From: an uncultured Candidatus Saccharibacteria bacterium
GTDB lineage: Bacteria > Patescibacteriota > Minisyncoccia > Phycocordibacterales > UBA6899
Assembly (NCBI GenBank): GCA_964469335.1
Contig: CAYXYK010000001.1
Location: forward strand, 142,501-206,500
DNA: 64,000 nt
Direction: 5' to 3'
The position numbers and the translations under genes are program-made. Shown here piece by piece: positions 1 to 59,605 of the stretch; within the stretch, counting starts at the first letter, position 1; every line of letters begins with the position of its first letter. The notes under the pieces are model-generated. The model saw only the letters and a list, made by a program, of their open reading frames with translations, searched no databases and had not been told where the DNA came from.

Positions 1-1883
1 AATACCTCTACACAGCACTCGACGCCAGCGCGGGGCTCAAGAACAGTATCGATGAGCTCCTCGACCGCCCTGACAGCGAGTGGGCACTTGCTGGCACAAA
101 CAGCAAACGAGACACCGTAGCAAAAGAAGACCGTGAGCGCATCGTGGAAGCCCTGCGAAACATACGAGTACTCGACCCAGCCGTAGGGTCAGGGGCATTC
201 CCAATGGGTGTGCTGCACAAGATCCTCAGCATCTTTGAGCGCCTCGACCCCAACTTTGACTCATACGAAACAAAGCTCTCGATCCTCAGAAACAACATCT
301 ACGGGGTTGATATTGACCCGACAGCTATTGAGATTGCTCGCCTCCGCGCATGGCTCTCAATTATCGTGGACGTGGAAGAGTTGAAAAAGATAAAGCCACT
401 CCCGAACCTCGACTTTAAGTTTGTTTGCGCAAACTCACTGGTTGGACTTACGAGAAGTGCTGCATCATTTACGACCGATGACACCTTAAAGCCAACACTC
501 ATGCGCATTCGCGATGAATACTATGCGACAAGTAGCAAGGTAAAAAAAGAGAAACTCCAAAAAGAATACTTGAAGCTGACTCACAAAGAGAGTCTGTTCG
601 ACTCCGAAGAGACCAAGCAGCTCAAGAGTTACCGTCCATTCGAAGTGGGATCAAGTACTTCGTTTTATGATCCTGAACTTATGCATGGCGTAAGTGTTTT
701 TGATCTCATAATTGGAAACCCACCCTACAATGTTAAGCTTTCTGACTTGGACAAACTCACATACAAAAACAAATATACTTCTGTTAGTTCTGGCAGGCAG
801 GATACCGCGGCAATCTTTGTGCAAGCAGCAAGCGGGTTCGCAAAGAATGATTTTACCATTTCTTTTATCGTGCCCTATCGTCTTTTCTCAAGAAAAAGAA
901 ATCATGGTGCGTTTCAAGAGTACATTTTGGAACATCTGTCGATCGATGAAATAATTTACCTCGGGAAGGATGCTGGGTTTGAGTCTGCAAAAGACGAGTT
1001 TATGGTTGTCTTGCTTAAAAAACCTGACCGAGAAAATTTAGTCAAAATATGCAATAAACCTGACTTTAGAAACCTGAACCAGCTAAATTTTGTATCTGTA
1101 AAACAATCTGTTTTTAGAGAAAACGGAGAAATCAACATAAATTTACTTAAGTACGATGTTGGTATTCTAAAAAAACTTGAGTCTAGTAGCACTCCACTTT
1201 CCTCATTATGTGAGGTAAAAGATGGGATTGTCCCATATATTAGAGAGAAGATGATTAGTTCACAGAAACTAGATAGTCGGTATGTAAAATTCGCGGGAGT
1301 ATCGGGGTGCTATAAGCTTGAACCATATTATTTCCATGCTGATGAAATGTATTTGTGTTACGACATCTCTGAAGCAAAAAAGTACATTACAGACCGTGAA
1401 GAGCTCAGGAAGGTTCAGCTCAGGGATAAATCAATATACCTCCAAGAAGAAAAAATAATTACCTCTCAGAATAGTTCAAGACTTAAGGGCACTATTGATC
1501 GGGAACAGTACTTTGTTTCTAATTCAATTCACAGCACCTATCTTAAAGAAGGATATAAGGACACCCTAGCGCTTGAATTTATTTTGGGTTGTATAAACTC
1601 GTCAGCATTAAATTATTTTTACAATTCAAAAAGACTGAAGGGAGTTGATCTCCATCCTCAAATACTGATCTCCACTCTCAAGACAGTTCCAGTGCCCAAA
1701 CTAGATACACCCGAAAAGGCGGAACTTGGGTCTCGGATCGTACGGTTGGTTAGACAAATTATTGAGAGCAAGAGGGGTGGGAAATCAAATTCGAATGTTC
1801 TTGAAGAAGAGGTTGACGACTTGGTATCCGAGCTATTTGGATTAAACGAAGACGAGGTGAGGATAATCAAAGAAAACAAATGA
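1..1883 (+). CDS. N6-adenine DNA methyltransferase (Eco57I / type IIG-like), 5' partial; the reading frame is open to the window start
   Basis: Frame is open from nt 3. Motif I LDPAVGSGAF at about 168-197; motif IV IGNPPY; start codon used by the ORF track is GTG. The C-terminal half is likely the target-recognition region. Confidence 0.7.
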   Translation, partial: YLYTALDASAGLKNSIDELLDRPDSEWALAGTNSKRDTVAKEDRERIVEALRNIRVLDPAVGSGAFPMGVLHKILSIFERLDPNFDSYETKLSILRNNIYGVDIDPTAIEIARLRAWLSIIVDVEELKKIKPLPNLDFKFVCANSLVGLTRSAASFTTDDTLKPTLMRIRDEYYATSSKVKKEKLQKEYLKLTHKESLFDSEETKQLKSYRPFEVGSSTSFYDPELMHGVSVFDLIIGNPPYNVKLSDLDKLTYKNKYTSVSSGRQDTAAIFVQAASGFAKNDFTISFIVPYRLFSRKRNHGAFQEYILEHLSIDEIIYLGKDAGFESAKDEFMVVLLKKPDRENLVKICNKPDFRNLNQLNFVSVKQSVFRENGEININLLKYDVGILKKLESSSTPLSSLCEVKDGIVPYIREKMISSQKLDSRYVKFAGVSGCYKLEPYYFHADEMYLCYDISEAKKYITDREELRKVQLRDKSIYLQEEKIITSQNSSRLKGTIDREQYFVSNSIHSTYLKEGYKDTLALEFILGCINSSALNYFYNSKRLKGVDLHPQILISTLKTVPVPKLDTPEKAELGSRIVRLVRQIIESKRGGKSNSNVLEEEVDDLVSELFGLNEDEVRIIKENK

Positions 1884-3379
1884 AAGCCGTAATCGTTGCC
1901 AGAGTCTCTACAGAGGAGCAGAAAGAAGCGGGTAGCTCCCTGCCTGCGCAAATCGATCGCATGGAGTCTTATTGCAAGCGTAAGGGGTTTCCGATTATCC
2001 AGTCCTATAGCTTTGACGAGAGTGCGTACGGAACAAAGCGAGATGAGTTCGACAAGATATTGGAGCTGATCGGCAAGTCGAAAGAAAAGCTCGCAATCTG
2101 CTTCGACAAAGTAGACCGCCTCTCTCGAAATATCTTCGACAAGCGCGTACCCCTTCTCTATGAAAAGGCGGTCGCGGGGCAGATCGAGCTCCACTTCGTG
2201 TCAGACGGGCAGATACTCAACGAGTCGGTTTCTGCGGTCGAGAAGTTTCACTTTCAGATCAATCTTGGTCTCGCAAAATACTTCTCTGACGCCATCAGCG
2301 ACAACGTGAAGCGCGTAAACGAGCGCAAACGCAATACTGGGGAGCTCACAGGAAAAGCCCCTATCGGATACAAGAGTAGCAAAGTAGAGGGTAGTCCCCG
2401 AGAGGTCGCCCCCGATCCCCTGCGCGCACCCCTCATTGCACGCGCATTTGAGCTCTACGGGAGCACTAACTACTCAATACAGACACTCCACATACAAATG
2501 ATAAAAGAGGGTCTCGTAGGCATCAACGGCAAGCCAATAGCGCACAGTGTCTTTGCCCGTATCCTGTCGAACCCGTTCTATTACGGAGTCATGCAAAGTA
2601 AGGGCAAGGAATATCCGCATATCTACCAACCCCTCATTTCAGAGATGCTGTTCCGCCGATGCCAAGAGATCCTCAAGAGACGCGCCAAAGCCCCGACAAA
2701 GTACCTCTCAAAGCCCTTCGTCTTTCGTGGTCTGCTTACCTGTGAAAATTGCGGTTGTAGCTACACCCCAGAGCTCCACAAGGGTAGGTTTGTGTACTAC
2801 AGCTGTACCAATGCACGCAGGGTCTGCAAGAAGGTATATGTGAACGAGAAAGATCTTCTGAAGCCGATTTTAAGCGACCTGAGGGCATTAGGAAAGCTTA
2901 GGCAGAAGGACATCGACATGATCACAGTGGACGTGCGCAAACTGAACGAAACGAAGACCTTGTATCTCTCAAACGCAGTTGCGGGACTCCGAAAACAGCA
3001 CGACGATGCTCAGCATCGGATCGACAGACTCATGGATCTTTTTATTGATGCGAGTATTACAAAGGAGGACTATGACAAAAAGCATAAAGAGCTCAGAGAA
3101 AAACAGTATGATCTCGGTATGCAATTGGATGATCACACGAAGGCAGACGAGAACTACCATATTGCCGCTTCTACAGTGCTCAGCTTAGCGAAACGCGCCG
3201 CAGAGATTTTCGAAAGTTCTGAACCAGAGGAAAAGAACGTACTTTTGAATTATCTACTTCAGAACCCGACCGTAAACGGAAAAAACGTAAGCTATGCCTT
3301 ACGTTCTCCCTTCAATGCTATTCTCGAACTTGCTAATTGTCCCTCTGGGGGTGCCTACAGGGATTCGAACCCTGACTGA
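1880..3379 (+). CDS. Large serine recombinase (resolvase/invertase N-terminal domain plus recombinase and zinc-ribbon C-terminal)
   Basis: N-terminus MKAVIVARVSTEEQ with the catalytic Ser; CxxC...CxxC cluster (CENCGCSYT...YYSC); 499 aa; last 34 nt overlap the tRNA-His gene antisense. Confidence 0.8.
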   Translation: MKAVIVARVSTEEQKEAGSSLPAQIDRMESYCKRKGFPIIQSYSFDESAYGTKRDEFDKILELIGKSKEKLAICFDKVDRLSRNIFDKRVPLLYEKAVAGQIELHFVSDGQILNESVSAVEKFHFQINLGLAKYFSDAISDNVKRVNERKRNTGELTGKAPIGYKSSKVEGSPREVAPDPLRAPLIARAFELYGSTNYSIQTLHIQMIKEGLVGINGKPIAHSVFARILSNPFYYGVMQSKGKEYPHIYQPLISEMLFRRCQEILKRRAKAPTKYLSKPFVFRGLLTCENCGCSYTPELHKGRFVYYSCTNARRVCKKVYVNEKDLLKPILSDLRALGKLRQKDIDMITVDVRKLNETKTLYLSNAVAGLRKQHDDAQHRIDRLMDLFIDASITKEDYDKKHKELREKQYDLGMQLDDHTKADENYHIAASTVLSLAKRAAEIFESSEPEEKNVLLNYLLQNPTVNGKNVSYALRSPFNAILELANCPSGGAYRDSNPD

Positions 3380-3422
3380 AAGCTCCACAAGCTTTAGTGC
3401 TAACCATTACACTATAAGCACC
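3346..3422 (-). tRNA. tRNA-His (GUG) with G-1 and encoded CCA
   Basis: Manual fold: G-1, acceptor GTGCTTA/TAGGCAC, anticodon loop TTGTGGA, T-arm CAGGG-TTCGAAT-CCCTG, discriminator C, CCA. Confidence 0.85.
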
Positions 3423-5935: not shown

Positions 5936-6017
5936 GGGCGTGTGGCGGAATTGGTATACGCGTACGTCTCAGAAGCGTATCCCGTAAGGGTTGGGAGTTC
6001 GAGTCTCCCCACGCCCA
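5936..6017 (+). tRNA. tRNA-Leu (CAG)
   Basis: Manual fold parallel to E. coli tRNA-Leu: GGGCGTG acceptor, anticodon loop CTCAGAA, long variable arm, GGGAG-TTCGAGT-CTCCC, discriminator A. Confidence 0.85.
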
Positions 6018-6030
6018 CTTAGTTCAGAAT

Positions 6031-6169
6031 GGCGTACGTCTCAGAAGTGTGAGAAGCGAGTATGCGAGCTTCGCAAGACCTTTTGAGAGATTTTCTGAAA
6101 TCTCCAAAAGGTGAACAGCTCCTGTAGGGAGTCCCGTAAGGGTTGGGAGTTCGAGTCTCCCCATGCCCA
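6031..6169 (+). other. tRNA-Leu-like 3' portion (D-stem 3' strand to acceptor 3' end) carrying an 86-nt structured insertion after the anticodon loop
   Basis: GGCGTACGTCTCAGAAG then insertion 6048-6133, then CCCGTAAGGGTTGGGAGTTCGAGTCTCCCCATGCCCA; it lacks its own 5' acceptor strand. Confidence 0.4.
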
Positions 6170-6304
6170 CTCAGTTCAGAATAGTACACACAAAAAACTG
6201 ACTATGGTCAGTTTTTTGATTGATTGGAACATGGATGCATCATGCTGGGCTTCCTTGCTTCTCGTCACCCCTTTCGGTAGGGTGGGAGAAGATATTGGTC
6301 TCAA

Positions 6305-19080: not shown

Positions 19081-19152
19081 GTCCTCGTCGTTCAATGGAT
19101 AGGACAAGAGTTTGCGGAACTCTAAATATAGGTTCGATTCCTATCGAGGGCA
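19081..19152 (+). tRNA. tRNA-Arg (GCG), unusual anticodon
   Basis: Manual fold: GTCCTCG/CGAGGGC acceptor, GTTC-AATGGATA-GGAC, anticodon stem-loop AGAGT-TTGCGGA-ACTCT, ATAGG-TTCGATT-CCTAT. Confidence 0.6.
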
Positions 19153-20675
19153 CAAAAATTAACTTCTTCTGAAATCTGCCCCGCGCGCAAGCGCGCGGTA
19201 GTCAGGAGGGGGTGGGTGAAATCCGAATTCGTGTTGCATGCAATGGCGAATGCGGTGGGTGGGCTAAATGAGACGGTGACGGATTTATCACGCATGATCG
19301 GGTTCGTTCCGATTTTTTTGATATAGTCCCGAATTTCCAAAAAATTATCGGACGAACTCAATTCCGTGGCTTTTTTCATATCCAAAATCCACTCCCGCAA
19401 AGGTTCGACCCAATTCTTTCTCTCTGCTCGAGCGGATGCCATTTTGTGCGCGAGCGACACCTTTTGCCCAAGGAGGTCATTTTTCTTTTTTAAATATTGC
19501 TCCTTGGGGATATCTCCGTCGAGGTAGAGTCCCACGAGGGTGTCGAGTTTCTGCTGTGTCTCGCGCTCACTTCCCCGCATCCGCTCGAGCTGACTTCCCG
19601 ACGACACGGTTTCCTCTCGCTCCCACTCGTCCACCTGTTTCGACATGCTCACAATCCAGTCGTCGGGAAGTACGATGTTTTGGAGCTGTGCTTTTACCTG
19701 AGCAACGAGCACCGCCTCCCGCATGTACCCCTGCGCACATTTTCCGTTCTTTTTCGTGCACCGATAATACCGATACAGTCCACCATGTCCTTTTGCCCAC
19801 TGTGCGGTAATCATGCCCCCACACTCCCCACAACGAAAAAGTCCGGTGAATGGAAAATCGTGATGCTTTTTTGATTTCACGGGGCGTGCTCGTTTGCTCA
19901 ATCTTTTCTGCACAGCTTCAAATAAGTCGGGAGAAAGAATTGGCGGAAATGTGCCATCAAACCATTCTCCGTGATGCTTCACCAACCCCAAATATGCCCG
20001 ATTGGAAAGCATGCCGGAGATGGCACATTTCGAGAGTGGCGTTCCATTTCGCGTCACAATGCCATGATCCGCCAAAAATTGCGCCATTGATTCGTAGCAA
20101 TGTTTCCCTGTGGCGAATTCCTTAAACACGCGAACAAGCAGGCTAGATTTCACCACGTCAGGCTCAATATTTCGCGTTTTAGGGTTATTTATATATCCAA
20201 ACGGTGCTTTGGTCAGCCATTCGCCACGGCGCAGTTTCTGGCGGATTCCACGCTCCACATTCTGCTTTAAGTTGTCGGAATAGTACTTGGACTGTCCGAA
20301 CGCCACTTGCAACATAAAAAGACCTTGCGGGGTTGGTTCAAACCAAAATGTCGGGAAGCGCAAAGAAATGATCTTGGTCGTGTCTACGGCATAGATGATG
20401 CGCCCGCCATCAATACTATTGCGTGCGAGGCGATCAGGATGCCACGCGAGGATACCCACACCGTCCATCGACTCAATGCGGGACATCATCTCATTGAATT
20501 TCTCACGACCCGGTTTCTTTGCGCTTTTCGACTCTTGAAATTCTTCGAGAATTTCAAGATTTTCTTTATGTGCGAACTCACGAAGCTCAAACAACTGCGC
20601 CTCGATAGACATCACTTGCTTATCATCATCCTCCGTACTCTTTCGCGCATAAAGAAAATATTTTGATTTGCTCAT
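19122..20675 (-). CDS. Large serine recombinase
   Basis: N-terminal YARKSTEDD...SIEAQ resolvase domain with catalytic Ser; CGECGG...YYRC zinc ribbon. The 3' end runs through the left inverted repeat and 31 nt of tRNA-Arg antisense. Start trimmed to MSKSKYF. Confidence 0.8.
   Translation of the reverse strand: MSKSKYFLYARKSTEDDDKQVMSIEAQLFELREFAHKENLEILEEFQESKSAKKPGREKFNEMMSRIESMDGVGILAWHPDRLARNSIDGGRIIYAVDTTKIISLRFPTFWFEPTPQGLFMLQVAFGQSKYYSDNLKQNVERGIRQKLRRGEWLTKAPFGYINNPKTRNIEPDVVKSSLLVRVFKEFATGKHCYESMAQFLADHGIVTRNGTPLSKCAISGMLSNRAYLGLVKHHGEWFDGTFPPILSPDLFEAVQKRLSKRARPVKSKKHHDFPFTGLFRCGECGGMITAQWAKGHGGLYRYYRCTKKNGKCAQGYMREAVLVAQVKAQLQNIVLPDDWIVSMSKQVDEWEREETVSSGSQLERMRGSERETQQKLDTLVGLYLDGDIPKEQYLKKKNDLLGQKVSLAHKMASARAERKNWVEPLREWILDMKKATELSSSDNFLEIRDYIKKIGTNPIMRDKSVTVSFSPPTAFAIACNTNSDFTHPLLTTARLRAGQISEEVNFCALDRNRTYI
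19151..19258. repeat. Left copy of a perfect 108-bp inverted repeat flanking the serine recombinase gene
   Basis: Exact reverse complement of 20742-20849; begins at the last 2 nt of tRNA-Arg. Confidence 0.9.
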
Positions 20676-20741
20676 AGATTTGCTTTTGATATAAAAAAAT
20701 GAAAAGTCCGTTGTCGGCTCATTTCCTGCCTTTCTGCCCGT

Positions 20742-20849
20742 CCACCGCATTCGCCATTGCATGCAACACGAATTCGGATTTCACCCACCCCCTCCTGACT
20801 ACCGCGCGCTTGCGCGCGGGGCAGATTTCAGAAGAAGTTAATTTTTGTG
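20742..20849. repeat. Right copy of the perfect 108-bp inverted repeat
   Basis: Reverse complement of 19151-19258. Read on the plus strand it re-encodes the recombinase C-terminal peptide (ORF 20699-20893). Confidence 0.9.
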
Positions 20850-21302: not shown

Positions 21303-22136
21303 TCATTCTTTCGACATCAACTCGCGCAGGCGACGATTCACATCGATCGGCTTACCGCTCTCCTTCATAAACGCATACATGCCGAGGATCATCTTTTGAA
21401 TATCGGAGTGGCGAATCTCGATCACCATCTTGTCATTGAGTGCGAGAAGGTACATCGCGTCCTTGAATGCGAATATCTGTGCCGAGTGTTCAAAGTATGA
21501 TTGAGGAAGATATACCGCGGATGATGATCTTCCCTCATAATCTTTTGCCCATGCGTCGCCCATAGCTCTGTAATGATTTTCAATCCAATTCTGTGAAGCG
21601 ACAAGCTCGCTAATGATTCCATTCTTCTTTACGATCCGGTTCCATTCATTGATCTCTTCTGGAGTGAATATCGAGAGCCATCCTTTCTCAAGAATATCCC
21701 CGAATGGGGTGTAACCAAGAAATCGCTCATCTTTTCGTGAGGTAATCATGTCAAAAATCACTTTTTTTACGGCAGCGGCTCCACGATGCACAGTCACCAC
21801 TCCATCTGTCACTCCGCCAACCTCCTCTTTACCATCGGAAAATGCCAGCAGTTTTTTCTTGAGTGCATAGAGTGTATCCGCAAGCTCTTTCTCGCTTGCG
21901 ATATGCCAACTCTTTTTTCCTCCAACAATACGCGACGCAGCAAGCCCACGCTTCTTGAGTTTGAGCAAAATCACATATACCGATGGACGGCTCACGCGTG
22001 TTTTTCGGGCGATATCAAGTACTGAGGCTCTCCCAGATTGGAGAGCAAGAAGGACTTTCTCTTCTTTTAACGACAGATCGAGCATCCTTAACTCTTCGCG
22101 TAGAGGCTCTCTTGTCTTGATTTTTGGGTTTTTCAC
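21303..22136 (-). CDS. TrmB-family transcriptional regulator (paralog of 7373-8128)
   Basis: wHTH LALQSGRASVLDIARKTRVSRPSVYVILLKLKKRGL plus TrmB-like C-terminal domain. Confidence 0.55.
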   Translation of the reverse strand: MKNPKIKTREPLREELRMLDLSLKEEKVLLALQSGRASVLDIARKTRVSRPSVYVILLKLKKRGLAASRIVGGKKSWHIASEKELADTLYALKKKLLAFSDGKEEVGGVTDGVVTVHRGAAAVKKVIFDMITSRKDERFLGYTPFGDILEKGWLSIFTPEEINEWNRIVKKNGIISELVASQNWIENHYRAMGDAWAKDYEGRSSSAVYLPQSYFEHSAQIFAFKDAMYLLALNDKMVIEIRHSDIQKMILGMYAFMKESGKPIDVNRRLRELMSKE

Positions 22137-22332
22137 CCCCTTAGTATAGCAAATTCTACAGTTTTGTAAAGTTTTTTTGACATTTTATGTGCTATTTTCA
22201 TCCTTTATTTACAACATACTTTGTGCATGAATGTTTGATACAACATATATTTTTACTGTCAATACATTTCCTGTTACGATGATACCAGAACGATAAGCAC
22301 AGTGCTTACCGAGAACCTTGAAGGAGACGATC

Positions 22333-22623
22333 ATGTACGAAGACAATCAGGTGCGCGAAATGATGGCGTCGATCCCCCAAGGGTTTGGGGTAGTCGCGGT
22401 ACAGTTCACCAACTGGGACGCGTACAGCGACTTCGAGCTGTACAAGGTTCCAGAAGGAACTGTACTGCCCGACGGCAAAGAGCTTTCTAGCGGCGAGTGT
22501 GCTCGGTATGAATATACCCACCACGCCCGCTACGAAAAGCTCTACTCGTTCTTTCAGGATTACAGGAACATGCTTGGGTGGACCAAGCTAGATTCCTTCA
22601 TCCTAGAGACGAGGTTTGCCTAA
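22333..22623 (+). CDS. Hypothetical protein
   Basis: RBS aaggag then ATG at 22333; followed by a ctggga-acgtga-tcccag hairpin. Confidence 0.4.
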   Translation: MYEDNQVREMMASIPQGFGVVAVQFTNWDAYSDFELYKVPEGTVLPDGKELSSGECARYEYTHHARYEKLYSFFQDYRNMLGWTKLDSFILETRFA

Positions 22624-22687
22624 GGAGCCCTGGGAACGTGATCCCAGTCAATAACTCACCGTCACGCAGGAGGACGTCACTCTCCTG

Positions 22688-22745
22688 CACTTTATCAAGT
22701 TTCTGAAGTGACTCAGAAACTTGTAGAGTAAGTTCTTTGAGAAAT
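22688..22745 (+). repeat. Composite hairpin motif copy a (CTTTATCAAGTT-hairpin-AACTTGTAGAG..AGTTCTTTGA)
   Basis: ctttatcaaGTTTCTGAagtgacTCAGAAACttgtagagtaagttctttgagaaa. Confidence 0.8.
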
Positions 22746-22750
22746 GTTCC

Positions 22751-22859
22751 ATCTAAGTTTTAGGATCGTGCGAGTGATGCATCGCTCGCAGCATCCTAAA
22801 ACTTAGGCTCCCCACGTGAACGGCCCGTATTGGGTACGACGTAGGGGTGAGGAGCAATC
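22751..22859 (+). promoter_or_regulatory. Structured 110-nt leader (54-nt palindrome, then ggggtgaggag RBS) upstream of ORF 22860
   Basis: About 95 percent identical to 24158-24265; palindrome ctaagttttaggatcgtgcgagtgatgcatcgctcgcagcatcctaaaacttag. Confidence 0.6.
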
Positions 22860-23294
22860 ATGAGCAACGCAACTGAAATCATGGGCCTGCTGCATTCCTA
22901 CTACAATAAGGAGACAGCGAAGGTCAGCAGTGGTGAGGTGGATCCAAGGAATCACTTCATCAGCTGCAGAATGGACAAGGTCATTCTTCTGGGTGTGTCA
23001 TCACCAATCCCTAAGGGATGGAAGAAGGCCGGGCCTCGGCAGCTGATTTGGCTGGCTAGCCATTCTCAGTACATGCCGGTGGAGTGGAGAGGGTATGAGC
23101 TTTTGTTCGACGAGGTGGTCTTCCATGACACCGAAGCGGATAAAGACTGCATGCCTAACTCACCTCCGTCACTCTGGGTGCCGACATTGTCGTATAACAA
23201 TGGAAGCATACCCGGCTGGAACAACAAAAGGATCTTCCTTAGTTGTCGGCCGGAGACACATCCCAACATGCTTAGGTTGTGTGTGCCAGAGTAG
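22860..23294 (+). CDS. Hypothetical cassette protein A (144 aa)
   Basis: Preceded by the structured leader; no recognisable domain. Confidence 0.5.
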   Translation: MSNATEIMGLLHSYYNKETAKVSSGEVDPRNHFISCRMDKVILLGVSSPIPKGWKKAGPRQLIWLASHSQYMPVEWRGYELLFDEVVFHDTEADKDCMPNSPPSLWVPTLSYNNGSIPGWNNKRIFLSCRPETHPNMLRLCVPE

Positions 23295-23496
23295 GTGTCC
23301 AACCGCAGCGCTAGCTGACTGCGGTATAAAAATAAACTAGTAGTGGCCAACTCGAGGGCCTGCACAACGTGTGATGCTCTGTAGAAAGAGCGTGGCACGA
23401 GGTGAGTCGCTTCCATACGGCATGGAAAGAAGCGGCAAGCGCTATGACTGGTAGATATGCGCGAACTACCCACCCGCCCGAGCGTGATCGGTGCAT

Positions 23497-23585
23497 GGGG
23501 AATCGGTTGATCGTCATGTGACGATTGATTCCCCTCTTTATCGGGCTCATCACACAGATATGGTGGGTCAGTAGAGACAAGTTCT
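23497..23585 (+). repeat. Composite hairpin motif copy b (degenerate), with hairpin A GGGGAATCGGTTGATCGTCATGTGACGATTGATTCCCC
   Basis: tctttatc-gggctcatcacac...gtgggtc-agtagag-acaagttctttgaa. Confidence 0.6.
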
Positions 23586-23638
23586 TTGAATCAATCGCGA
23601 AATTCTTCGCACTGCACCTCGGGTACTGGGGTAAGGAG

Positions 23639-23797
23639 ATGAGCATGTGGAAATGGGCTGTCATCGCCCTCTGCGGCTTCCAAGCCGTGTGGGCAGCTCA
23701 CTATGTTGTCGAGAATAATGGTTGGTCGATCTTCGCGGTCGCAGCCATCATCATCGACATCCTTGTACTGCTTGCAGTCACAAAGGAGAACAGGTGA
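23639..23797 (+). CDS. Small single/double-TM peptide (52 aa)
   Basis: RBS aaggag; MSMWKWAVIALCGFQAVWAAHYVVENNGWSIFAVAAIIIDILVLLAVTKENR. Confidence 0.35.
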   Translation: MSMWKWAVIALCGFQAVWAAHYVVENNGWSIFAVAAIIIDILVLLAVTKENR

Positions 23798-23825
23798 GTA
23801 CACCCGGCCGGGAGGCCCGAGTATT

Positions 23826-23935
23826 GCGCGCTTGGGAACAGAAGTCGCATTGGGGGAAATTCATTTCCCCACTTTATCAAGTTCATCACATGGGTTGTGA
23901 ACTTGTAGAGTGCAGTTCTTTGAAAACGGCCTGTC
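23826..23935 (+). repeat. Composite hairpin motif copy c, with upstream box CGCTTGGGAACAGAAGTCGCATT and hairpin A GGGGGAAATTCATTTCCCC
   Basis: ctttatcaagttcatcacatgggttgtgaacttgtagagtgcagttctttgaaaa. Confidence 0.8.
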
Positions 23936-24070
23936 TGATGCCTTGTTGCACCGACTCCCAGGAGCGCTGCAGCAAAAATCAAATGGCTGATCACCATTTG
24001 ATGCTGACTATCGGTACTTGAACAAAACGCCGAGACGCCCGCAGATAAGGAAAGTATATCTGTGGGAGCG

Positions 24071-24150
24071 GAGGAAGCCTGCAACTTCCTCCTCTTTATC
24101 AAGTGCATCACATTGGGTGGTGCGCTTGTAGAGAAAGTTCTTTGAGAATA
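24071..24150 (+). repeat. Composite hairpin motif copy d, with hairpin A GGAGGAAGCCTGCAACTTCCTCC
   Basis: tctttatcaagtgcatcacattgggtggtgcgcttgtagagaaagttctttgagaata. Confidence 0.8.
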
Positions 24151-24157
24151 TCTCCAT

Positions 24158-24265
24158 TCTAAGTTTTAGGATCGTGCGAGTGATGCATCGCTCGCAGCAT
24201 CCTAAAACTTAGGCTCCCCACGTGCACGGCCCGCATTGGGTACGGCGTAGGGGTGAGGAGATAAC
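24158..24265 (+). promoter_or_regulatory. Structured 110-nt leader (second copy) upstream of ORF 24266
   Basis: Near-identical to 22751-22859, including the RBS. Confidence 0.6.
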
Positions 24266-24697
24266 ATGTCCAAGATCTATGTTTCACACTTTCATGGTTT
24301 CAACGACCTGGAGGCCACCAAGATGGCTGTGTCAGGCATTGAAGCAGAAAGTGAAAAGGAACTCCGACTGAAGCTTAGGGGTCGCCTCCTCGCCAACCTT
24401 GACAGCATTGTCGAAGAGTTGATGGAGAAGACCTTCAGCCTTCAGTATGTGACCCCGTTGGGTCAAAGGGTTTATCCCGAGGTGTACGAGATGATGCAAA
24501 GCCTGCCCAAGGGGTATACGCTCATCGAGTACACCTACCAGGTGAGGCCTGGGTGCATCGACTATCGAACGATGTACTACCAGGCCCCTGAAGGGATCGA
24601 GGTCGATGGCAAGACCTTGAGGGAAAGCGAGTTCTATCGGGCCGGAGGTTACTACGGAAGTAATCCTCCATGGGCCGTGAACTGCACCCGACTCTGA
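24266..24697 (+). CDS. Hypothetical cassette protein B (143 aa; unrelated in sequence to protein A)
   Basis: Same leader as 22860; the 3' flank 24698-24960 is homologous to 23295-23555. Confidence 0.5.
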   Translation: MSKIYVSHFHGFNDLEATKMAVSGIEAESEKELRLKLRGRLLANLDSIVEELMEKTFSLQYVTPLGQRVYPEVYEMMQSLPKGYTLIEYTYQVRPGCIDYRTMYYQAPEGIEVDGKTLRESEFYRAGGYYGSNPPWAVNCTRL

Positions 24698-24898
24698 CGG
24701 AGTAACCGCAGAGCTTGTTCGAACGACTGCGGTATAGAAATGAACAAGTAGTGGTCAACTCGAGGACCTGCACATTGCATGTCGCCCGTAGAACGGCAGA
24801 TGCACAAGGTGAGACCGTGGATACAGCTAAAACCATGGACAAACGCTTTACTGGTAGATACGCGTGAACTACTCGTCTGCCAGTACGTGAACTGTGCG

Positions 24899-24998
24899 CG
24901 GGGAATCGGTTGATCGTCATGTGACGATTGATTCCCCTCTTTATCAAGTTTCTGAAGAAATTCGGAAGCTTGTAGAGATGAGTTCATTGAATCAGTGT
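24899..24998 (+). repeat. Composite hairpin motif copy e, with hairpin A GGGAATCGGTTGATCGTCATGTGACGATTGATTCCCC
   Basis: tctttatcaagtttctgaagaaattcggaagcttgtagagatgagttcattgaatcag. Confidence 0.8.
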
Positions 24999-25099
24999 GA
25001 TGAAGTGAAGCGATGCCAGGAAGGCCTGTGGGGCATGTCTTTCAAACGAAAGCATGAACACATTCCTGCCATCACTCCACTTCATCACCGGAGATAACT

Positions 25100-25345
25100 A
25101 TGCAAAAGCTGATCATTGTTTGTGCGCTGTTTGTGCTGTCGGGCTGCGATATCGTCTACAGCGATCGCGCCGGCTTTGCGCACGGCTACCGCGACGGGCA
25201 AGGAGTCGCCTTGGGTCATGGAACATGCCAGACATTTCCAAACCCACGGAAGTCGATCATCCCGATCGAGCGACCGGCAAGTTACGCAAATGCATATCGG
25301 GAGGGATATGCGGTGGGCTGCCGAGCCATGCTCCGACATGAGTAA
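25100..25345 (+). CDS. Small lipoprotein (81 aa)
   Basis: Signal peptide and lipobox LSGC; preceded by a long imperfect hairpin leader 25003-25095. Confidence 0.5.
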   Translation: MQKLIIVCALFVLSGCDIVYSDRAGFAHGYRDGQGVALGHGTCQTFPNPRKSIIPIERPASYANAYREGYAVGCRAMLRHE

Positions 25346-25357
25346 GACTCCGAGCCC

Positions 25358-25478
25358 GCGACGCTTGGGAACAGAAGTCGCATTCGCAGAACATTTTGTT
25401 CTGCACTTTATCAAGTTCACGAAATGGCCTGCCTGTCGGCAGACAGGTTCGTGAACTTGTAGAGCAAACTCTTTCAAT
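25358..25478 (+). repeat. Composite hairpin motif copy f, with upstream box CGCTTGGGAACAGAAGTCGCATT and hairpin A GCAGAACATTTTGTTCTGC
   Basis: ctttatcaagttcacgaaatggcctgcctgtcggcagacaggttcgtgaacttgtagagcaaactctttcaatcaaggag. Confidence 0.8.
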
Positions 25479-25491
25479 CAAGGAGAAGACC

Positions 25492-25635
25492 ATGTGGTAT
25501 GTATTCTGTTTTGTGATCGGTTTCGCGTTTGGCGCACTGCTTGTGATCGAGATCAAGCTTGAGCTTGCGGGTTACCAGCCGCCGGAGGGCTACCCACGCA
25601 TTCCGCTTGACCGTGGTCCATACGTGCGACTGTGA
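25492..25635 (+). CDS. Small TM peptide (47 aa)
   Basis: RBS aaggag; MWYVFCFVIGFAFGALLVIEIK... Confidence 0.35.
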   Translation: MWYVFCFVIGFAFGALLVIEIKLELAGYQPPEGYPRIPLDRGPYVRL

Positions 25636-25669
25636 GTGTTCGGTTGAAAATTAACGAAAGGAGATCGTC

Positions 25670-25837
25670 ATGAAGAAAGTCGGGAAGACCCTCGCTCCGC
25701 GCCTGCCGGAGATCGCGAGGAAGAAGCTCACGCAGGGCGGTACGCACAATAACAAGAAGGCGTACAAGAGGAAGGAAAAGCATCACAGCCGAGAGACCTC
25801 TCGGCTGTATTTTTTAGTGATACAATTCATCAGATGA
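25670..25837 (+). CDS. Small highly basic protein (55 aa, K/R-rich)
   Basis: RBS aaggagatcgtc-ATG; MKKVGKTLAPRLPEIARKKLTQGGTHNNKKAYKRKEKHH...; an internal terminator-like hairpin near the 3' end makes the true stop uncertain. Confidence 0.3.
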   Translation: MKKVGKTLAPRLPEIARKKLTQGGTHNNKKAYKRKEKHHSRETSRLYFLVIQFIR

Positions 25838-26472
25838 GCACAGCGATAGAAATTGCAAGTGATATACATACGCTGACATCGAATTGGTCAAAAGGTCAGC
25901 ACAAGCTCGTTATGGCCCTCGATGGGTATACCGGTGTCGGGAAGACAACGATACTGAACGAACTATTGAAACTCAATCCTGACATCCTTCCTGTGCATGT
26001 GGACGACTTCATTTTGCCGCCGGCAGAATTCAAGGAAATTCTCGCGGAGAACTCCGACCGTTCGATTGCATTTGAACTGCATCGCAATGACTATGCGAGG
26101 ATTGAAGAATTGGTGAATAGGTTTCGCACACAAGATGACCCCGTCGAGGTGCTCGTTGCAAATCCAGTGACCGGAGCGATCGATGTTCCCAAAACCTTCG
26201 ACTGTTCGAAGAAGATTATGGTCGTCGAGGGGGTGTTCATGTTTCACCCGAAGTTACTGAACCACCTTTGGGACAAGCGCATATATCTTGATGGAGATAC
26301 TACGAAAATTGACGAGCGACGAATTGCTCGCGAAAAAGCACGTTGGGGTGATAAATATTTTCCCGAAACCCATCCAGATTCATTCTTTGGACAGGTGGTC
26401 ATTGCACTCAAGCGATATCGCGAAGAATATAAACCAGAAGAATTAGCGGATGCAGTATTATTCGTGAATTAA
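25834..26472 (+). CDS. P-loop nucleoside kinase, uridine kinase / PRK family-like
   Basis: Walker A GYTGVGKTT; RIYLDGDTTKIDERRIARE resembles the udk motif IFVDTDADVRLARRI. Confidence 0.55.
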   Translation: MSTAIEIASDIHTLTSNWSKGQHKLVMALDGYTGVGKTTILNELLKLNPDILPVHVDDFILPPAEFKEILAENSDRSIAFELHRNDYARIEELVNRFRTQDDPVEVLVANPVTGAIDVPKTFDCSKKIMVVEGVFMFHPKLLNHLWDKRIYLDGDTTKIDERRIAREKARWGDKYFPETHPDSFFGQVVIALKRYREEYKPEELADAVLFVN

Positions 26473-39508: not shown

Positions 39509-39668
39509 CACCCAATGATACCGCAAATTAAAAAACCTCCAATTGAGGGGTTTTCAGCATACATATCTTTGGGCAGGTCACGAATATTTTCTGCTGAAAA
39601 TTTCGCGACCCCGCCTCGCGCCGCCGCGCTCCGGCTCTAAAAACTTCCATGCTTTCAGTTTTTAGCAC

Positions 39669-39715
39669 CTTTTGGGGATTTAGGAAAATCCCTCAAAAGG
39701 TCTTGCGTGAGAAGA
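39669..39715 (+). repeat. 46-bp palindromic direct repeat, copy 1
   Basis: caccttttggggatttaggaaaatccctcaaaaggtcttgcgtgag. Confidence 0.8.
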
Positions 39716-39770
39716 CCGGAGCTCACTGAGGATTCATATCGCGCACTCGCCCTACAGGCGCAGTACACCT

Positions 39771-39817
39771 TTTGGGGATTTAGGAAAATCCCTCAAAAGG
39801 TCTTGCGTGAGTGACAG
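39771..39817 (+). repeat. 46-bp palindromic direct repeat, copy 2
   Basis: Identical to copy 1; 56-bp spacer. Confidence 0.8.
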
Positions 39818-57043: not shown

Positions 57044-58272
57044 TAGTATCCTGGGTGGTTTGTGCAGTACAACACATTTGTTGCATATTTTCGAGTCCCA
57101 ATCAATCCGCTGTTGCAGACTTTGTGGGCATTGTCATCATAGAGGCACTCCCATTGTCGAACCTGCGTATGTCCCGCATCACAACTCGTGTCACTTCCAC
57201 ATGATGCCGAGTCCTGGCATCTCCCCGCCCCCGCATTGTATCCCGCCGCAAGATTTCGGACATCATTTCCACAACTTCCGGTGAGTGATTTGACGTACTC
57301 AGCGGCAATGCAGATGCTTTTGGGCCAATTCTTCTCTTCTGCAAGCCACCCAAGAGTGATGGTGTCAGTGACTCCACATGAACCAGAATTCTTGAACTTG
57401 TTCGCAGTTGCAGGAGTGAGGTGGATTGGCCCTGCCGACAGACCGTCAAAACCCACCACATCAGAAGGGCGTGCGACACAGCTCGACTCCTGAAGTATCA
57501 GTGCTTTCAGAAAATTCGCCGTTGCGACACCGCTCGCGTAGGTGTTCACCATCGGAACGAATCGGGCACAATTCGGATTCGTACATTGTCGGAAGGTCTC
57601 TTCGCAAAGATTCATTCCTGACTGCGGACAAGTGACACTCCCCGCCGTCGTGACTGGGGGAGGAGTCGATCCTGGAGGAGCGGCAACTTTCGTTGGCTCA
57701 TAACACTTACTCTGGATGAGATAGTGTGCGGGATCTGCCTGGAAATTACTACGAATGTTATCGCACTGTTCACATGTGTCAGCACTTTGGAATTTCACAT
57801 TTCCGGTCGTATTGTCCCGGTATTTGAAATAGCAGCCCGGTCCGGTCGGATTCGGCTCGGTCGTTGCAGTGGAGGCAGGAGTGGTGAGGGTAACCGCATT
57901 GACCAATGTCTGTGTATTTTTCAGCAAGAGTGGATTGATGGTGTTGAGGAGGAGCCATGAGCCGATCGCTAGCAGCACTCCGAATATCGCATTGGTGATA
58001 CACTCTTTTGCTGCACTTTTCCCCGATACCGACCCGGAGGCCATCAGTTGGATGCCGCAGATGACGATCATGATGACCGCGAGGATCCCCGCGATGCCGA
58101 TAGTGGTCTCAAGAATACCCTTGAGATAGTTCGCGAGATTCACACAACCAGTAAGGGTACCGATCGGAGCAAGGAGATCATATTCGTCCGGACTCGCACA
58201 GGCGGCGAATGCAGTGTTGGTAGTTAATCCAAGAACAAGAAACGGCAAATGACGGAATTGGCGTATGGTCAT
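57043..58272 (-). CDS. VirB2/TrbC-pilin-like N-terminal module fused to an SLT-family lytic transglycosylase (VirB1-like)
   Basis: N-terminal two-TM module shared with 58490-59605 and 30986-32938; C-terminal LILQESS (catalytic E-S) and AAGYNAGAG (SLT AYNAG motif). Confidence 0.6.
   Translation of the reverse strand: MTIRQFRHLPFLVLGLTTNTAFAACASPDEYDLLAPIGTLTGCVNLANYLKGILETTIGIAGILAVIMIVICGIQLMASGSVSGKSAAKECITNAIFGVLLAIGSWLLLNTINPLLLKNTQTLVNAVTLTTPASTATTEPNPTGPGCYFKYRDNTTGNVKFQSADTCEQCDNIRSNFQADPAHYLIQSKCYEPTKVAAPPGSTPPPVTTAGSVTCPQSGMNLCEETFRQCTNPNCARFVPMVNTYASGVATANFLKALILQESSCVARPSDVVGFDGLSAGPIHLTPATANKFKNSGSCGVTDTITLGWLAEEKNWPKSICIAAEYVKSLTGSCGNDVRNLAAGYNAGAGRCQDSASCGSDTSCDAGHTQVRQWECLYDDNAHKVCNSGLIGTRKYATNVLYCTNHPGY
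57901..58217. repeat. 317-bp module identical to 59231-59547
   Basis: Encodes residues about 18-125 of both pilin-like proteins; exact DNA identity. Confidence 0.9.
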
Positions 58273-58489: not shown

Positions 58490-59605
58490 TCAGATTTGTG
58501 TACATGCTTTCTGGAACAAGCCTGCACTTTTCCCTGCAGGTGCGGTGGTTCCGTCTCGACATACATGCCAGTGAGGAAATTTTGAGCCGCCAGTCTCATC
58601 AGTGAACCAATATCCATTGTAAAGCCATTTTTGGAAGCAGTATCCAGCCTTTACATCACAAAAAGACGGGTTCGCTTTCACGGTGGCATTCGTCTTGATG
58701 AAATTATATAGCGTGTCAGTCTTTGAGAGGTCGAAGACAGGAATCCCTGAGCCATGACTCGAGTGCCCCCCTTCTGTCCCCCCGGTGATCGTGACTTTGC
58801 AGCCGCATGCGCTTGCAAGGCTTTTTAGGTCACTAATAAGGGTACCATCAAGTCCGTCGACATTCGTGCAGTTCACCCCTCCGGTATTAGTCGGGGCGCA
58901 GGAATTCTTATTGATATAGACATTGGAGTTACTCGAACTTGTGCACGAGTCATTCCCGCAAATGGAGTTCCTTGTCGCCACCTCGCCAGCTGGCTGGGCG
59001 GACTTTCTGATCTCAAAACAACCCGGGGTCCCGTTAGGGCCGTTCTGGATCACCGATCCATTATCCGCTTCTTTTTTTTGAAGCTGAAGACAGGATTCCG
59101 ATGTCTCATATTTCGGGCTGTTCTTGATGTTCCCTGCACTATCACGATATCTGAAATACCAACCTGCTTCTGTCGGCATCGGGGCAGTCGTCGGACCAGC
59201 GGCCGGCGGAGTCGTTAGTGTGGTTGCAGTCACCAATGTCTGTGTATTTTTCAGCAAGAGTGGATTGATGGTGTTGAGGAGGAGCCATGAGCCGATCGCT
59301 AGCAGCACTCCGAATATCGCATTGGTGATACACTCTTTTGCTGCACTTTTCCCCGATACCGACCCGGAGGCCATCAGTTGGATGCCGCAGATGACGATCA
59401 TGATGACCGCGAGGATCCCCGCGATGCCGATAGTGGTCTCAAGAATACCCTTGAGATAGTTCGCGAGATTCACACAACCAGTAAGGGTACCGATCGGAGC
59501 AAGGAGATCATATTCGTCCGGACTCGCACAGGCGGCGAATGCAGTGTTCGACGGAGCTAATAAGGCGAGGATTGGGAAGAATGTGTAAATCGCAAATCTG
59601 CTCAT
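58490..59605 (-). CDS. VirB2/TrbC-pilin-like N-terminal module fused to an M15-family (VanY / L-Ala-D-Glu peptidase-like) cell wall peptidase
   Basis: EGGHSSHGSGIPVFDL (SxHxxGxAxD-like) and FPHWHV (HWH) metal-binding motifs in the C-terminal domain. Confidence 0.5.
   Translation of the reverse strand: MSRFAIYTFFPILALLAPSNTAFAACASPDEYDLLAPIGTLTGCVNLANYLKGILETTIGIAGILAVIMIVICGIQLMASGSVSGKSAAKECITNAIFGVLLAIGSWLLLNTINPLLLKNTQTLVTATTLTTPPAAGPTTAPMPTEAGWYFRYRDSAGNIKNSPKYETSESCLQLQKKEADNGSVIQNGPNGTPGCFEIRKSAQPAGEVATRNSICGNDSCTSSSNSNVYINKNSCAPTNTGGVNCTNVDGLDGTLISDLKSLASACGCKVTITGGTEGGHSSHGSGIPVFDLSKTDTLYNFIKTNATVKANPSFCDVKAGYCFQKWLYNGYWFTDETGGSKFPHWHVCRDGTTAPAGKSAGLFQKACTQI
59231..59547. repeat. 317-bp module identical to 57901-58217
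   Basis: See the paired copy. Confidence 0.9.

Follow-up and report, generated by a model that had tools for sequence, protein, structure and literature searches.

Structured leader and trailer RNAs as putative untranslated-region modules of interchangeable orphan-gene cassettes in an uncultured Candidatus Saccharibacteria bacterium

Introduction

A 64,000-nucleotide stretch of DNA (the window) from an uncultured Candidatus Saccharibacteria bacterium contains two unrelated small genes, each preceded by a near-identical leader and followed by a similar trailer. This arrangement raises the question of what the flanking modules are and whether the coding sequence that they enclose is exchangeable. 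An earlier note on this DNA proposed a modular expression cassette with a swappable coding core, controlled by a thermosensor or ligand-responsive leader. The reading favoured here, at slightly better than even odds (about 0.55), is that the leaders and trailers are the 5' and 3' untranslated-region (UTR) RNA modules of interchangeable orphan-gene cassettes, which are cut, gated and swapped in the manner proposed in the Discussion.

Results

Pairwise alignment of leader A (22751-22859) with leader B (24158-24265) gave 102 identical positions out of 109 (93.6%), in agreement with the figure of about 95% in the earlier note. When the leaders were delimited more widely (22749-22863 and 24155-24269) the identity was 94%, and the similarity ran on upstream, at 85.5% between 22690-22859 and 24094-24265. 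Two features described previously were located in both leaders: a near-perfect 54-nt palindrome (22753-22806 in leader A and 24159-24212 in leader B), with a stable predicted fold in which a 2x2 internal loop separates 15 bp from a further 9 bp capped by a tetraloop, and the arrangement GCTCCCC...TAGGGGTGAGGAG directly before the ATG. The MFE of the 156-nt leader region was -63.4 kcal/mol (z = -5.6 compared to shuffled sequences). A CM search of the 64 kb returned two copies, both on the + strand and inside the array described below, with none elsewhere: leader A at 22745..22859 (CM R1, 122 bits) and leader B at 24150..24265 (CM R1, 115.5 bits).

As had been claimed, the two proteins behind the leaders, ORF-X (22860..23294, + strand, 144 aa) and ORF-Y (24266..24697, + strand, 143 aa), showed no similarity to each other (BLASTP E = 3.9). 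ORF-X is a strict orphan: among 5.8 billion proteins its only homologues were members of its own 90% cluster. ORF-Y belongs to a small family, and its AF2 model (pLDDT 87) matched no fold in the PDB. Pfam domains were absent from ORF-X, ORF-Y and nine leader-associated ORFs from other loci. The regions downstream of the two genes (23295-23555 and 24698-24960) were identical at 200 of 272 positions (73.5%), close to the value of 75% or so given before.

The genes are part of a 3.6-kb array of small same-strand cassettes (approximately 22250-25815), which is divergent from a gene encoding a TrmB-like wHTH regulator (21303..22136, - strand; Pfam TrmB, 4.9e-07). The neighbours assigned by Pfam were this gene, an Xre regulator and a large serine recombinase (19122-20762, 1.5 kb away). 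The array start (22250..22332, + strand) comprises a TTTTTACTGTCAA motif, a hairpin (GATAAGC..GCTTA, 22292-22309) and the Shine-Dalgarno sequence (SD) of the first cassette; the motif and the hairpin were shared with loci L148 and L153. Cassette 1 (ORF 22333..22623, + strand, 96 aa from the ATG at 22333) encodes a distant paralogue of ORF-Y (BLASTP E = 5e-06). Between ORF-X and ORF-Y are a leaderless cassette encoding a small membrane protein (23645..23797, + strand, 50 aa), with a homologue in L001, and a cassette lacking an ORF (23924..24069, + strand), a conserved non-coding spacer that in L148 (5480-5665) lies between different neighbouring cassettes. ORF-Y is followed by leaderless cassettes encoding a putative lipoprotein (25100..25345, + strand, 81 aa, no Pfam match) and a small membrane protein (25492..25635, + strand, 47 aa), and the array ends with a small basic ORF and a strong intrinsic terminator (25670..25815, + strand; terminator at 25785-25808 plus a T run).

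Both modules recurred in approximately 20 loci from uncultured bacteria, most of them labelled as candidate phyla radiation (CPR). By pattern and CM searches the leader was found once in each of L001-L006, L127, L129, L132, L134-L137, L140, L143 and L152-L155, and twice in L130 and in each of L144-L151, which come from aquatic samples (PRJNA377521). The trailer was present in L003-L006, L130 (twice), L132, L140-L143, L148 (twice), L152 and L153. Loci L007-L126 and L156 onward were chance matches of looser element patterns and were left out. A TrmB-like gene was also found divergent and upstream in L127, L130, L134, L135, L140, L144-L151, L153 and the P0008 contig. Leader and trailer thus recur on many independent contigs. 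The leader is conserved beyond this genome, and the resemblance between the copies cannot be due to chance.

In the syntenic locus L130, another ORF, of 173 aa instead of 144 aa, stands between the same leader and trailer. Nucleotide identity between the window and L130 was 93-100% over cassette 1, the intercistronic element and the 5' arm of leader hairpin P1, was random across the ORF, and was 82-95% again from the first trailer nucleotide; the TrmB-like gene was only about 80% identical. This swap, and the at least 12 unrelated orphan ORFs that were enclosed by the modules across the loci, supported the earlier proposal that leader and trailer form a conserved unit around an exchangeable coding core. 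Cassette content and order varied between syntenic genomes, with breakpoints within the conserved modules; the order in L148, for example, differed from that in the window, and members of the ORF-Y family were found with either trailer type. Obligatory pairing of leader and trailer was rejected because each occurs without the other: L141 has a trailer and no leader, and L129 and L136 have a leader and no trailer. In L127 and L134 only the first trailer hairpin was present.

Covariation supported a leader architecture of two hairpins, P1 (approximately 25 bp interrupted by a fixed internal loop) and P2. In the leader alignment 97.3% of cells were paired and 11 pairs carried double changes; none of 500 shuffles reached any of the measures, and slid controls had at most 48% of cells paired. 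G.U pairs fell on the + strand, and the sense strand was more stable than its reverse complement in 10 of 14 leaders. The covariation upheld the view that the leader is a genuine structured RNA. P1 spanned a constant 50 nt in eight true homologues from a genome scan, and its outer 13 bp were invariant across 14 sequences. This invariance, judged from the alignment, hints at sequence-specific recognition, beyond what the favoured model accounts for.

The earlier note had the ribosome binding site sequestered by pairing of its GGGG with the CCCC tract. The two tracts do pair, and they covary (CCCC/GGGG to CACC/GGUG), but the helix that they form is P2, which stops 1-2 nt before the AGGAG SD and leaves it uncovered. 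Sequestration of the SD is predicted instead through a different helix, P0, in which the 5' flank pairs with the SD: UGUUCC with GGAGCA in leader A and AUCUCC with GGAGAU in leader B, a compensatory change. The successive parts are the anti-SD (22745-22750), P1 (22753-22806), P2 (22808-22849) and AGGAG SD (22850-22854) of leader A, and the anti-SD (24150-24155), P1 (24159-24212), P2 (24214-24255) and SD (24256-24260) of leader B, all on the + strand. P0 was predicted in most copies, with weak, G.U-rich pairs. In 8 of 14 leaders the SD was predicted to pair with the 5' flank with a probability of at least 0.95; in seven of these eight, 0-5 of 100 flank shuffles scored as high as the real sequence, and in the eighth (L135) 12 of 100 did so. 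P0 was weak or no better than shuffles in five to six of the 14.

The trailer was delimited at 23302..23492 (trailer A) and 24705..24897 (trailer B, a B-type variant of the same RNA), both on the + strand, from the alignments and pair counts. Its covariation-supported fold has nine helices, including a pseudoknot. The first hairpin begins 6-9 nt after the stop codon (7 nt in trailer A, where it is followed by the multi-helix domain with the pseudoknot). In the trailer alignment 94.1% of cells were paired and 18 pairs had double changes, with none of 500 shuffles reaching four of the five measures; the pseudoknot stem was 100% paired, with two covarying pairs. As in the leader, where the alignments likewise support RNA structure on the sense strand, this strand was the more stable in 11 of 13 trailers. 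A coding function for the trailer was ruled out by its compensatory substitutions and by indel runs of 1, 2, 3 and 5 nt, which break every reading frame.

Cassettes are parted by a punctuation module that consists of a variable GC hairpin, a CUUUA(U)-stem-UAGAG hairpin of 15-24 bp and a U-rich box. Six copies were found, all on the + strand within the 3.6 kb and none elsewhere in the 64 kb: copy 1 (22666..22740; GC hairpin 22666-22688, CUUUAU..UAGAG hairpin 22690-22728, box AAGTTCTTTGA 22730-22740), copy 2 (23497..23589; GC hairpin 23497-23534, hairpin 23536-23576, box 23579-23589), copy 3 (23853..23923), copy 4 (24070..24145; GC hairpin 24070-24092, hairpin 24094-24133, box 24135-24145), copy 5 (24900..24990) and copy 6 (25386..25477). 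A possible seventh copy at 36306 and a regex match at 52994 formed no hairpin and were dropped. Of 34 distinct copies of the element hairpin, 31 folded more stably than the reverse complement did, a strand asymmetry that fits RNA and top-strand single-stranded DNA alike.

The U-rich box was rejected as a general anti-SD of the leaderless cassettes, since box-SD pairing was no better than in shuffles. The GC hairpin with the UCUUUAU behind it may be no more than a terminator. In boxA/nut antitermination sites a single-stranded boxA (GCUCUUUAACAA) lies beside a hairpin and is bound by NusB/NusE; CUCUUUAUCAA resembles this boxA, which may not be that of the host, at 10 of 11 positions, yet here it makes up the 5' side of the element hairpin.

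Type III hammerhead ribozymes have three stems around a CUGAUGA...GAAA core and cleave at a NUH site. Candidates were found in relatives (L001/L002, L137 and L143) in the same slot as the punctuation module, just 5' of the leader, with E values of 1e-05 to 6e-05, an intact CUGAUGAG/CGAAA core and a covarying stem I. A further candidate in L132 (E 0.004) sits at a contig end, with the downstream sequence off the contig. At 32-41 bits, the five (L001, L002, L132, L137 and L143) fell short of the gathering score, which is 48.5. No hammerhead was detected in the window (22200-25900 against Rfam 15, E <= 10). This wider system had escaped the earlier note: an intercistronic element in six copies, an array linked to a TrmB-like gene, and candidate hammerheads at the corresponding position in relatives.

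At the gathering threshold, Rfam 15 returned only tRNAs from the window, and at E <= 10 the region 22200-25900 gave only chance matches to miRNA-type hairpins (13-22 bits). Because the leader has no match in Rfam 15 and is conserved beyond this genome, it is neither a known family of that release nor a peculiarity of one genome, the two outcomes against which the earlier note had asked for checks. No match was found by blastn in phage and plasmid collections (50,697 phage records). The leader, trailer and hammerhead-subtype patterns were absent from IMG/VR, where two looser element patterns gave single chance matches only. On these blank searches a phage or plasmid origin was rejected; the flanks of the array are chromosomal genes. 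An integrated element bounded by tRNA-Arg repeats was also rejected, as the window holds no second copy of the tRNA 3' end. A search of the literature on CPR cassettes and RNA motifs yielded nothing relevant.

Discussion

The modules are best read as RNAs that act in cis, as UTRs and as punctuation, to process and stabilise the cassettes and to gate their translation. The array would be transcribed as long RNAs and then cut between cassettes. In some relatives the hammerhead would do the cutting; in the window a host RNase, most obviously RNase III, would act at the punctuation hairpin. The 3' end would be protected by the GC hairpin and the trailer. The leader would close a three-way junction through P0, and because P0 pairs the 5' flank with the SD, translation of leader-bearing cassettes would be off by default until P0 was opened, for example through cleavage of P1 or by a bound factor. 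Since the modules would be conserved for their RNA function, they could double as portable homology arms, and coding cores may be swapped by homologous recombination between them, like the promoter-early stem-loops (PeSLs) of T4-type phages. The promoters, processing sites and transcript ends are those that we infer.

Leaders and intercistronic sites processed by RNase III, as in the T7 early mRNAs and the lambda N leader, are hairpins of at least 20 bp with an internal loop; cleavage sets the mRNA ends and can relieve occlusion of a ribosome binding site. Judged by sequence, P1, with its 15 bp, 2x2 loop and 9 bp, has the roughly two turns of double-stranded RNA and the internal loop of such a site, and the element hairpins have 15-24 bp. 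The T7 and lambda sequences, however, are unrelated to those of the array, and an invariant outer stem such as that of P1 is not among the known RNase III determinants.

Because the trailer, with nine helices and invariant loops, is more complex than a 3' stabiliser requires, its actual role may differ. It is conceivable, though improbable, that RNA defines the cassettes of this array, which would make it a bacterial equivalent of integrons or PeSLs, and that the trailer or the punctuation module represents a new functional class of RNA, for example self-cleaving or factor-recruiting. If so, structured RNAs that are as yet uncatalogued would set cassette identity, processing and expression, and the trailer would not be a passive UTR.

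The suggestion of the earlier note, a riboswitch or RNA thermometer in which a ligand or temperature opens the SD-sequestering helix, has fared poorly and is unlikely. The strong conservation of a three-helix leader across genomes, and its predicted closing helix with weak G.U-rich pairs, would suit such a device. However, the genes controlled are unrelated orphans (at least 12 ORFs) with no common pathway, and a ligand is nowhere indicated. The junctions have almost no linkers, most of the invariant nucleotides are within the P1 and P2 helices and not in junctions, bulges or a pocket, and in L153 the P1 sequence is replaced wholesale while the long hairpin is retained.

Slightly less likely again is an integron-like system, in which the element, P1 and first trailer hairpins fold as single-stranded DNA and a site-specific recombinase captures and excises cassettes. 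Like an integron, the array has small cassettes of mostly unknown function in one orientation beside a divergent anchor gene, a shuffled cassette order, and imperfect palindromes at the boundaries whose structure is better conserved than their sequence, with conserved ends (CTTTAT...TAGAG), a variable palindromic centre that also differs in length and a single extrahelical base. The large serine recombinase is nearby, and a truncated one abuts the array of L003. In contrast to integrons, there is no IntI or other tyrosine integrase and there are no attC cores (RYYYAAC...GTTRRRY), and the element folds better on the top (coding) strand, whereas attC does so on the bottom strand. The arrays of L144-L151 and L130 have no recombinase nearby, the neighbours of related arrays being TrmB-like and housekeeping genes, and the variable hairpin length ill suits the dimer site of a serine recombinase. 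The candidate self-cleaving RNA in the same slot in relatives, and the SD and start codon that are integral to the leader, also speak against an integron-like system. Cassettes bring their own SD and leader, and features at the RNA level dominate.

A DNA-level explanation, with the box and the 5' arm of P1 as a promoter and the palindrome as an operator of the TrmB-like or Xre regulator, is less probable still. A TTGAGA-18-TAGGAT match at 22737-22766, the TrmB-like regulator that always adjoins the arrays and the invariant outer stem of P1 are consistent with it. Promoter-like sites, however, were at chance level (3 found in 3.8 kb compared to 3.5 expected), and a sigma70 promoter in the repeated element was rejected, given chance-level matches and inconsistent spacing. 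The putative -10 differs in its final base (T, C or A) from copy to copy, the inner P1 stem and P2 show covariation with sense-strand G.U pairs, L136 has a consensus promoter (TTGACT-17-TATAAT) approximately 35 nt upstream of P1, ahead of the whole leader, as transcription through the leader would require, and L153 keeps the hairpin and not its sequence. Functionless selfish palindromic repeats (MITE/REP-like) or a plain tandem duplication might be suspected from repeated intergenic palindromes and two units 1.4 kb apart, and are highly improbable given copies confined to the array within 64 kb, a fixed register to the SD, start and stop codons, extensive compensatory changes over approximately 20 loci and no observed target-site duplications.

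For the UTR modules proposed here the closest analogue is the PeSL-flanked ORFans of T4-type phages. PeSLs are composites of a sigma70 promoter and a terminator that flank small orphan genes in hyperplastic regions of these phage genomes (PMC2839356, PMC4122927). They mark the breakpoints of insertions, deletions and replacements between relatives, and homologous recombination between the motifs is the proposed means of exchange (Arbiol 2010, PMC2839356; Comeau 2014, PMC4122927). Conserved stem-loop motifs flank small orphan genes here too, and breakpoints between relatives fall in the motifs, as seen in the comparison with L130 and in the order of L148. Unlike PeSLs, the repeated element has no promoter consensus, although it has a GC stem-loop; the array lies in a bacterial chromosome and has no phage match; and its modules are much larger, covarying RNAs. 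If the proposed reading holds, this would be a cellular, chromosomal analogue of phage PeSL shuffling, in which orphan genes are exchanged exactly at their start and stop codons, and a concrete route for trade in accessory genes among symbionts with reduced genomes. It would also add at least three covariation-supported RNA motifs absent from Rfam 15 (the 110-nt leader, the pseudoknotted trailer of about 200 nt and the intercistronic hairpin module) from the poorly studied CPR. Large, complex RNAs whose function is unknown are seldom found, and such RNAs have time and again led to new biochemistry.

Clustered hammerheads in prophage-like regions, often near integrases, flank single genes of inconstant identity (Perreault 2011, PMC3088659) and were proposed to cut long transcripts into gene-length mRNAs (PMC3088659). 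Relatives of the array similarly carry type III candidates at cassette boundaries, whereas the window has a simple conserved hairpin instead, and leader and trailer are outside that description. Alternation of a hammerhead with a plain hairpin at one boundary would, if the reading holds, be a natural experiment on the punctuation of polycistronic transcripts. In L152 the same candidate hammerhead sequence lies 5' of a leaderless cassette.

Leaders, ORFs and trailers in the window

The two leader copies (22751-22859 and 24158-24265) were 93.6% identical, and each contained a 54-nt palindrome (22753-22806 and 24159-24212) followed by GCTCCCC...TAGGGGTGAGGAG and then the ATG. The proteins encoded behind them, ORF-X (22860-23294; 144 aa) and ORF-Y (24266-24697; 143 aa), were unrelated (BLASTP E = 3.9), and the regions of approximately 260 nt located 3' of both ORFs shared 73.5% identity. 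Because the indels between these regions were 1, 2, 3 and 5 nt long, a coding role for the trailers was excluded. These results bore out the earlier note, which had described near-identical palindromic leaders, unrelated proteins and homologous downstream regions. The predicted model of ORF-Y was confident (pLDDT 87) and matched no fold in the PDB. Parts of ORF-Y occurred as repeats in two larger proteins (P0010, P0011): a 3822-aa protein had 16 copies of residues 59-103, and a 606-aa protein had seven copies of residues 7-65.

A repeated punctuation element

A repeat search revealed six + strand copies of a short intercistronic punctuation element inside 3 kb (22690, 23536, 23872, 24094, 24939 and 25406). 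The element consisted of a variable GC-rich hairpin; 1 nt further, a second hairpin with an invariant CUUUA(U)...UAGAG base and a stem of variable sequence and length; and the U-rich box AAGTTCTTTGA. It stood 5' of every small + strand ORF between approximately 22333 and 25837; the leaders are part of a larger repeated system. The array was closed by a strong intrinsic terminator (25785-25815), the hairpin of which was overlapped by the 3' end of the last array gene, a small, very basic ORF (25670-25837; ..RLP..ARKKL..GGTHNNKKAYKRKEK..) that was conserved in the related locus L137.

One cassette carried no ORF. Its conserved non-coding spacer, with the hairpin CAAAUGG..CCAUUUG, was present at 23924-24069 and in a related locus, L148 (5480-5665), and was flanked by two punctuation elements, although the neighbouring cassettes differed between the window and L148. 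This spacer may be a small RNA.

Recurrence and probable exchange of cassettes

Searches of the array region against Rfam 15 returned nothing, even at E ≤ 10; the leader matched no known family, a match that the earlier note had named as a refutation. No match to the region was found in the phage collection, the plasmid collection or IMG/VR. Conservation of the leader beyond this genome was apparent from its recovery in relatives. A pattern scan of species-representative genomes located the leader in eight further MAGs, labelled Saccharibacteria (two), Moraniibacteriota (one), Lloydbacteria (one), unclassified (one) and binned Bdellovibrionales (three); five other matches were due to chance. 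The handful of ORF-Y homologues had the same leader and trailer on their contigs, and ORF-X-carrying contigs yielded eight additional arrays. The leader covariance model identified exactly two copies in the window and one or two in each related array, including diverged arrays. A metagenome scan located the trailer in four further contigs. The ORFs behind the leader (74-173 aa) were mutually unrelated and had no Pfam domains. In the window, a TrmB-like regulator gene (21303-22136) adjoins the start of the array and is transcribed divergently from it; such a gene also lay upstream, in divergent orientation, at every locus whose flanking sequence reached far enough.

The coding core proposed to be exchangeable between leader and trailer was indeed replaced in L130, a locus syntenic with the window, in which the TrmB-like gene had approximately 80% nucleotide identity. 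Identity was 93-100% across the first cassette, the element and the 5' arm of the leader, fell to random within the ORF (144 aa in the window, 173 aa in L130) and recovered to 82-95% from the first nucleotide of the trailer onwards. In L148, a second unit of leader, ORF and trailer came immediately after ORF-X, and the ORF-less spacer came next; in the window this spacer follows a different cassette. ORF-Y relatives were associated with either trailer type. Leader and trailer were separable: L141 had only a trailer, L129 and L136 only a leader, and L127 and L134 only the first trailer hairpin. The RNA modules were far better conserved across loci than the TrmB-like genes. Taken together, these observations indicate that cassettes or their flanks move between arrays, or that they are much more strongly constrained than the anchor gene.

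Structure of the modules

The + strand was more stable than its reverse complement for 31 of 34 distinct punctuation hairpins, 10 of 14 leaders and 11 of 13 trailers; the structures belong to the sense strand. All 34 punctuation hairpins had the same fold, with one to five G.U pairs. Since the leader incorporates an SD sequence and a start codon, and since a consensus promoter lies upstream of the whole leader in L136, the natural reading is that the structures act as RNA. The alternative that they are integron-like single-stranded DNA sites is less well supported: the organisation resembles that of integron arrays, but by the defining tests of integrons it is not one.

The consensus of 14 distinct leaders comprised two hairpins, P1 and P2, with 97.3% of cells paired and double changes at 11 pairs; none of 500 shuffles reached any measure, and slid controls were at most 48% paired. 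The outer 13-14 bp of P1 were invariant (CUAAGUUUUAGGA/UCCUAAAACUUAG); each single-sided change in this outer stem gave a U.G or G.U pair on the + strand. The inner stem of P1 covaried freely. In L153, the most distant member, the P1 sequence was wholly different, yet its place was taken by a hairpin of comparable length that also had an internal loop. The CCCC/GGGG pairing proposed earlier to sequester the ribosome binding site is real and covaries within P2 (for example, to CACC/GGUG), but it leaves the SD uncovered, since P2 stops 1-2 nt before AGGAG. Folding of the leader with its 5' flank instead predicted a third helix, P0, in which nucleotides immediately 5' of P1 form pairs with the SD (UGUUCC with GGAGCA in leader A; AUCUCC with GGAGAU in leader B, a compensatory difference). 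The P0 pairing probability was ≥ 0.95 in eight of 14 leaders, mostly above shuffled flanks, and weak in five to six; SD sequestration through P0 is therefore likely but not established. That the leader is a riboswitch or thermometer is less well supported than its role as one of several cis-acting modules.

The nine-helix model built on 13 trailers had 94.1% of cells paired and double changes at 18 pairs; on four of five measures no shuffle (0/500) attained the observed value. It includes an H-type pseudoknot, the stem of which was 100% paired, in which the GGUAG loop of a GCGC/GCGC stem pairs with CUACC. The first trailer hairpin always began 6-9 nt after the stop codon, so that a terminating ribosome would reach it. 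The complexity of the trailer suggests that its function may be other than 3'-end stabilisation.

Hammerhead candidates in the punctuation slot

A type III hammerhead candidate replaced the CUUUAU...UAGAG hairpin in L001 (567-621), L002 (227-281), L137 (1069-1123, - strand) and L143 (1244-1298, - strand), in each case flanked 5' by the GC hairpin and directly 3' by the box and leader. Another lay at the end of the L132 contig (2436-2489), and the same sequence preceded a leaderless cassette in L152 (approximately 1116-1167). Each was preceded by a variable GC hairpin. The candidates scored 32-41 bits (E 1e-05 to 4e-03), which is less than the gathering score set by Rfam; they retained intact CUGAUGAG and CGAAA cores, and stem I covaried. 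An earlier study described hammerheads that flank single genes, the identity of which is not constant, and that often lie close to integrases; it interpreted them as cutting long transcripts to gene-length mRNAs (PMC3088659). Mainly because hammerhead candidates share its slot, the punctuation hairpin is read as an RNA processing site, not as a promoter or DNA recombination site. A promoter with an operator is less well supported.

A conserved non-coding sequence, ..GCGUUGCC.A.AGGCAAUGUUAC....GGAAGAA, was found upstream of the hammerhead candidates in L137 (approximately 1130-1240, - strand), L132 (2330-2430), L143 and L152 (1020-1085), and could be another structured RNA belonging to the arrays.

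Proposed mechanism

Cis-acting RNA modules make up the best-supported model, in which the processing, the gating and the mechanism of exchange are inferred. Punctuation would fall to a ribozyme in relatives and to the hairpin, a candidate RNase III-type substrate, in the window; the GC hairpin and trailer would protect the 3' end; and a three-way junction would hide the SD, gating leader-bearing cassettes. Because they are conserved, the modules could double as homology arms between which coding cores are swapped, as do the PeSLs of T4-type phages (PMC2839356, PMC4122927). The organisation resembles PeSL shuffling and hammerhead-punctuated gene sets, but by the defining tests of each it belongs to neither. 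That the modules are simply selfish repeats is also less well supported. The modules are absent from Rfam 15 and no description was found in the searchable literature; less probably, the trailer or punctuation module represents a new functional RNA class.

Chromosomal setting

The surrounding genes (PilM, PolA, PBP, Mur ligase, a type IV secretion pilin and scattered tRNAs) point to a bacterial chromosome. Each of two large serine recombinase genes adjoined a tRNA gene (1880-3379 with tRNA-His, 3346-3422; 19122-20762 with tRNA-Arg, 19081-19153), which suggests integrated elements or their remnants. The latter overlaps tRNA-Arg 1.5 kb upstream of the array; no second copy of the tRNA-Arg end, delimiting an island, was found within the window. 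In the related locus L003, a large serine recombinase without its N-terminal catalytic domain (1276-2076) lay immediately 3' of the last cassette, a boundary suggestive of a junction left by recombination or deletion.

Elsewhere in the window, the 3' half of tRNA-Leu(CAG) (5980-6030) had a second copy 152 nt downstream (6132-6182; 96% identity), the pattern that an attachment-site scar would leave. A 300-nt direct repeat (57860-58159 and 59190-59489; 94% identity) spanned two neighbouring genes on the minus strand. A 46-nt direct repeat (39666-39711 and 39766-39811), perfect and containing a hairpin, had copies 100 nt apart.
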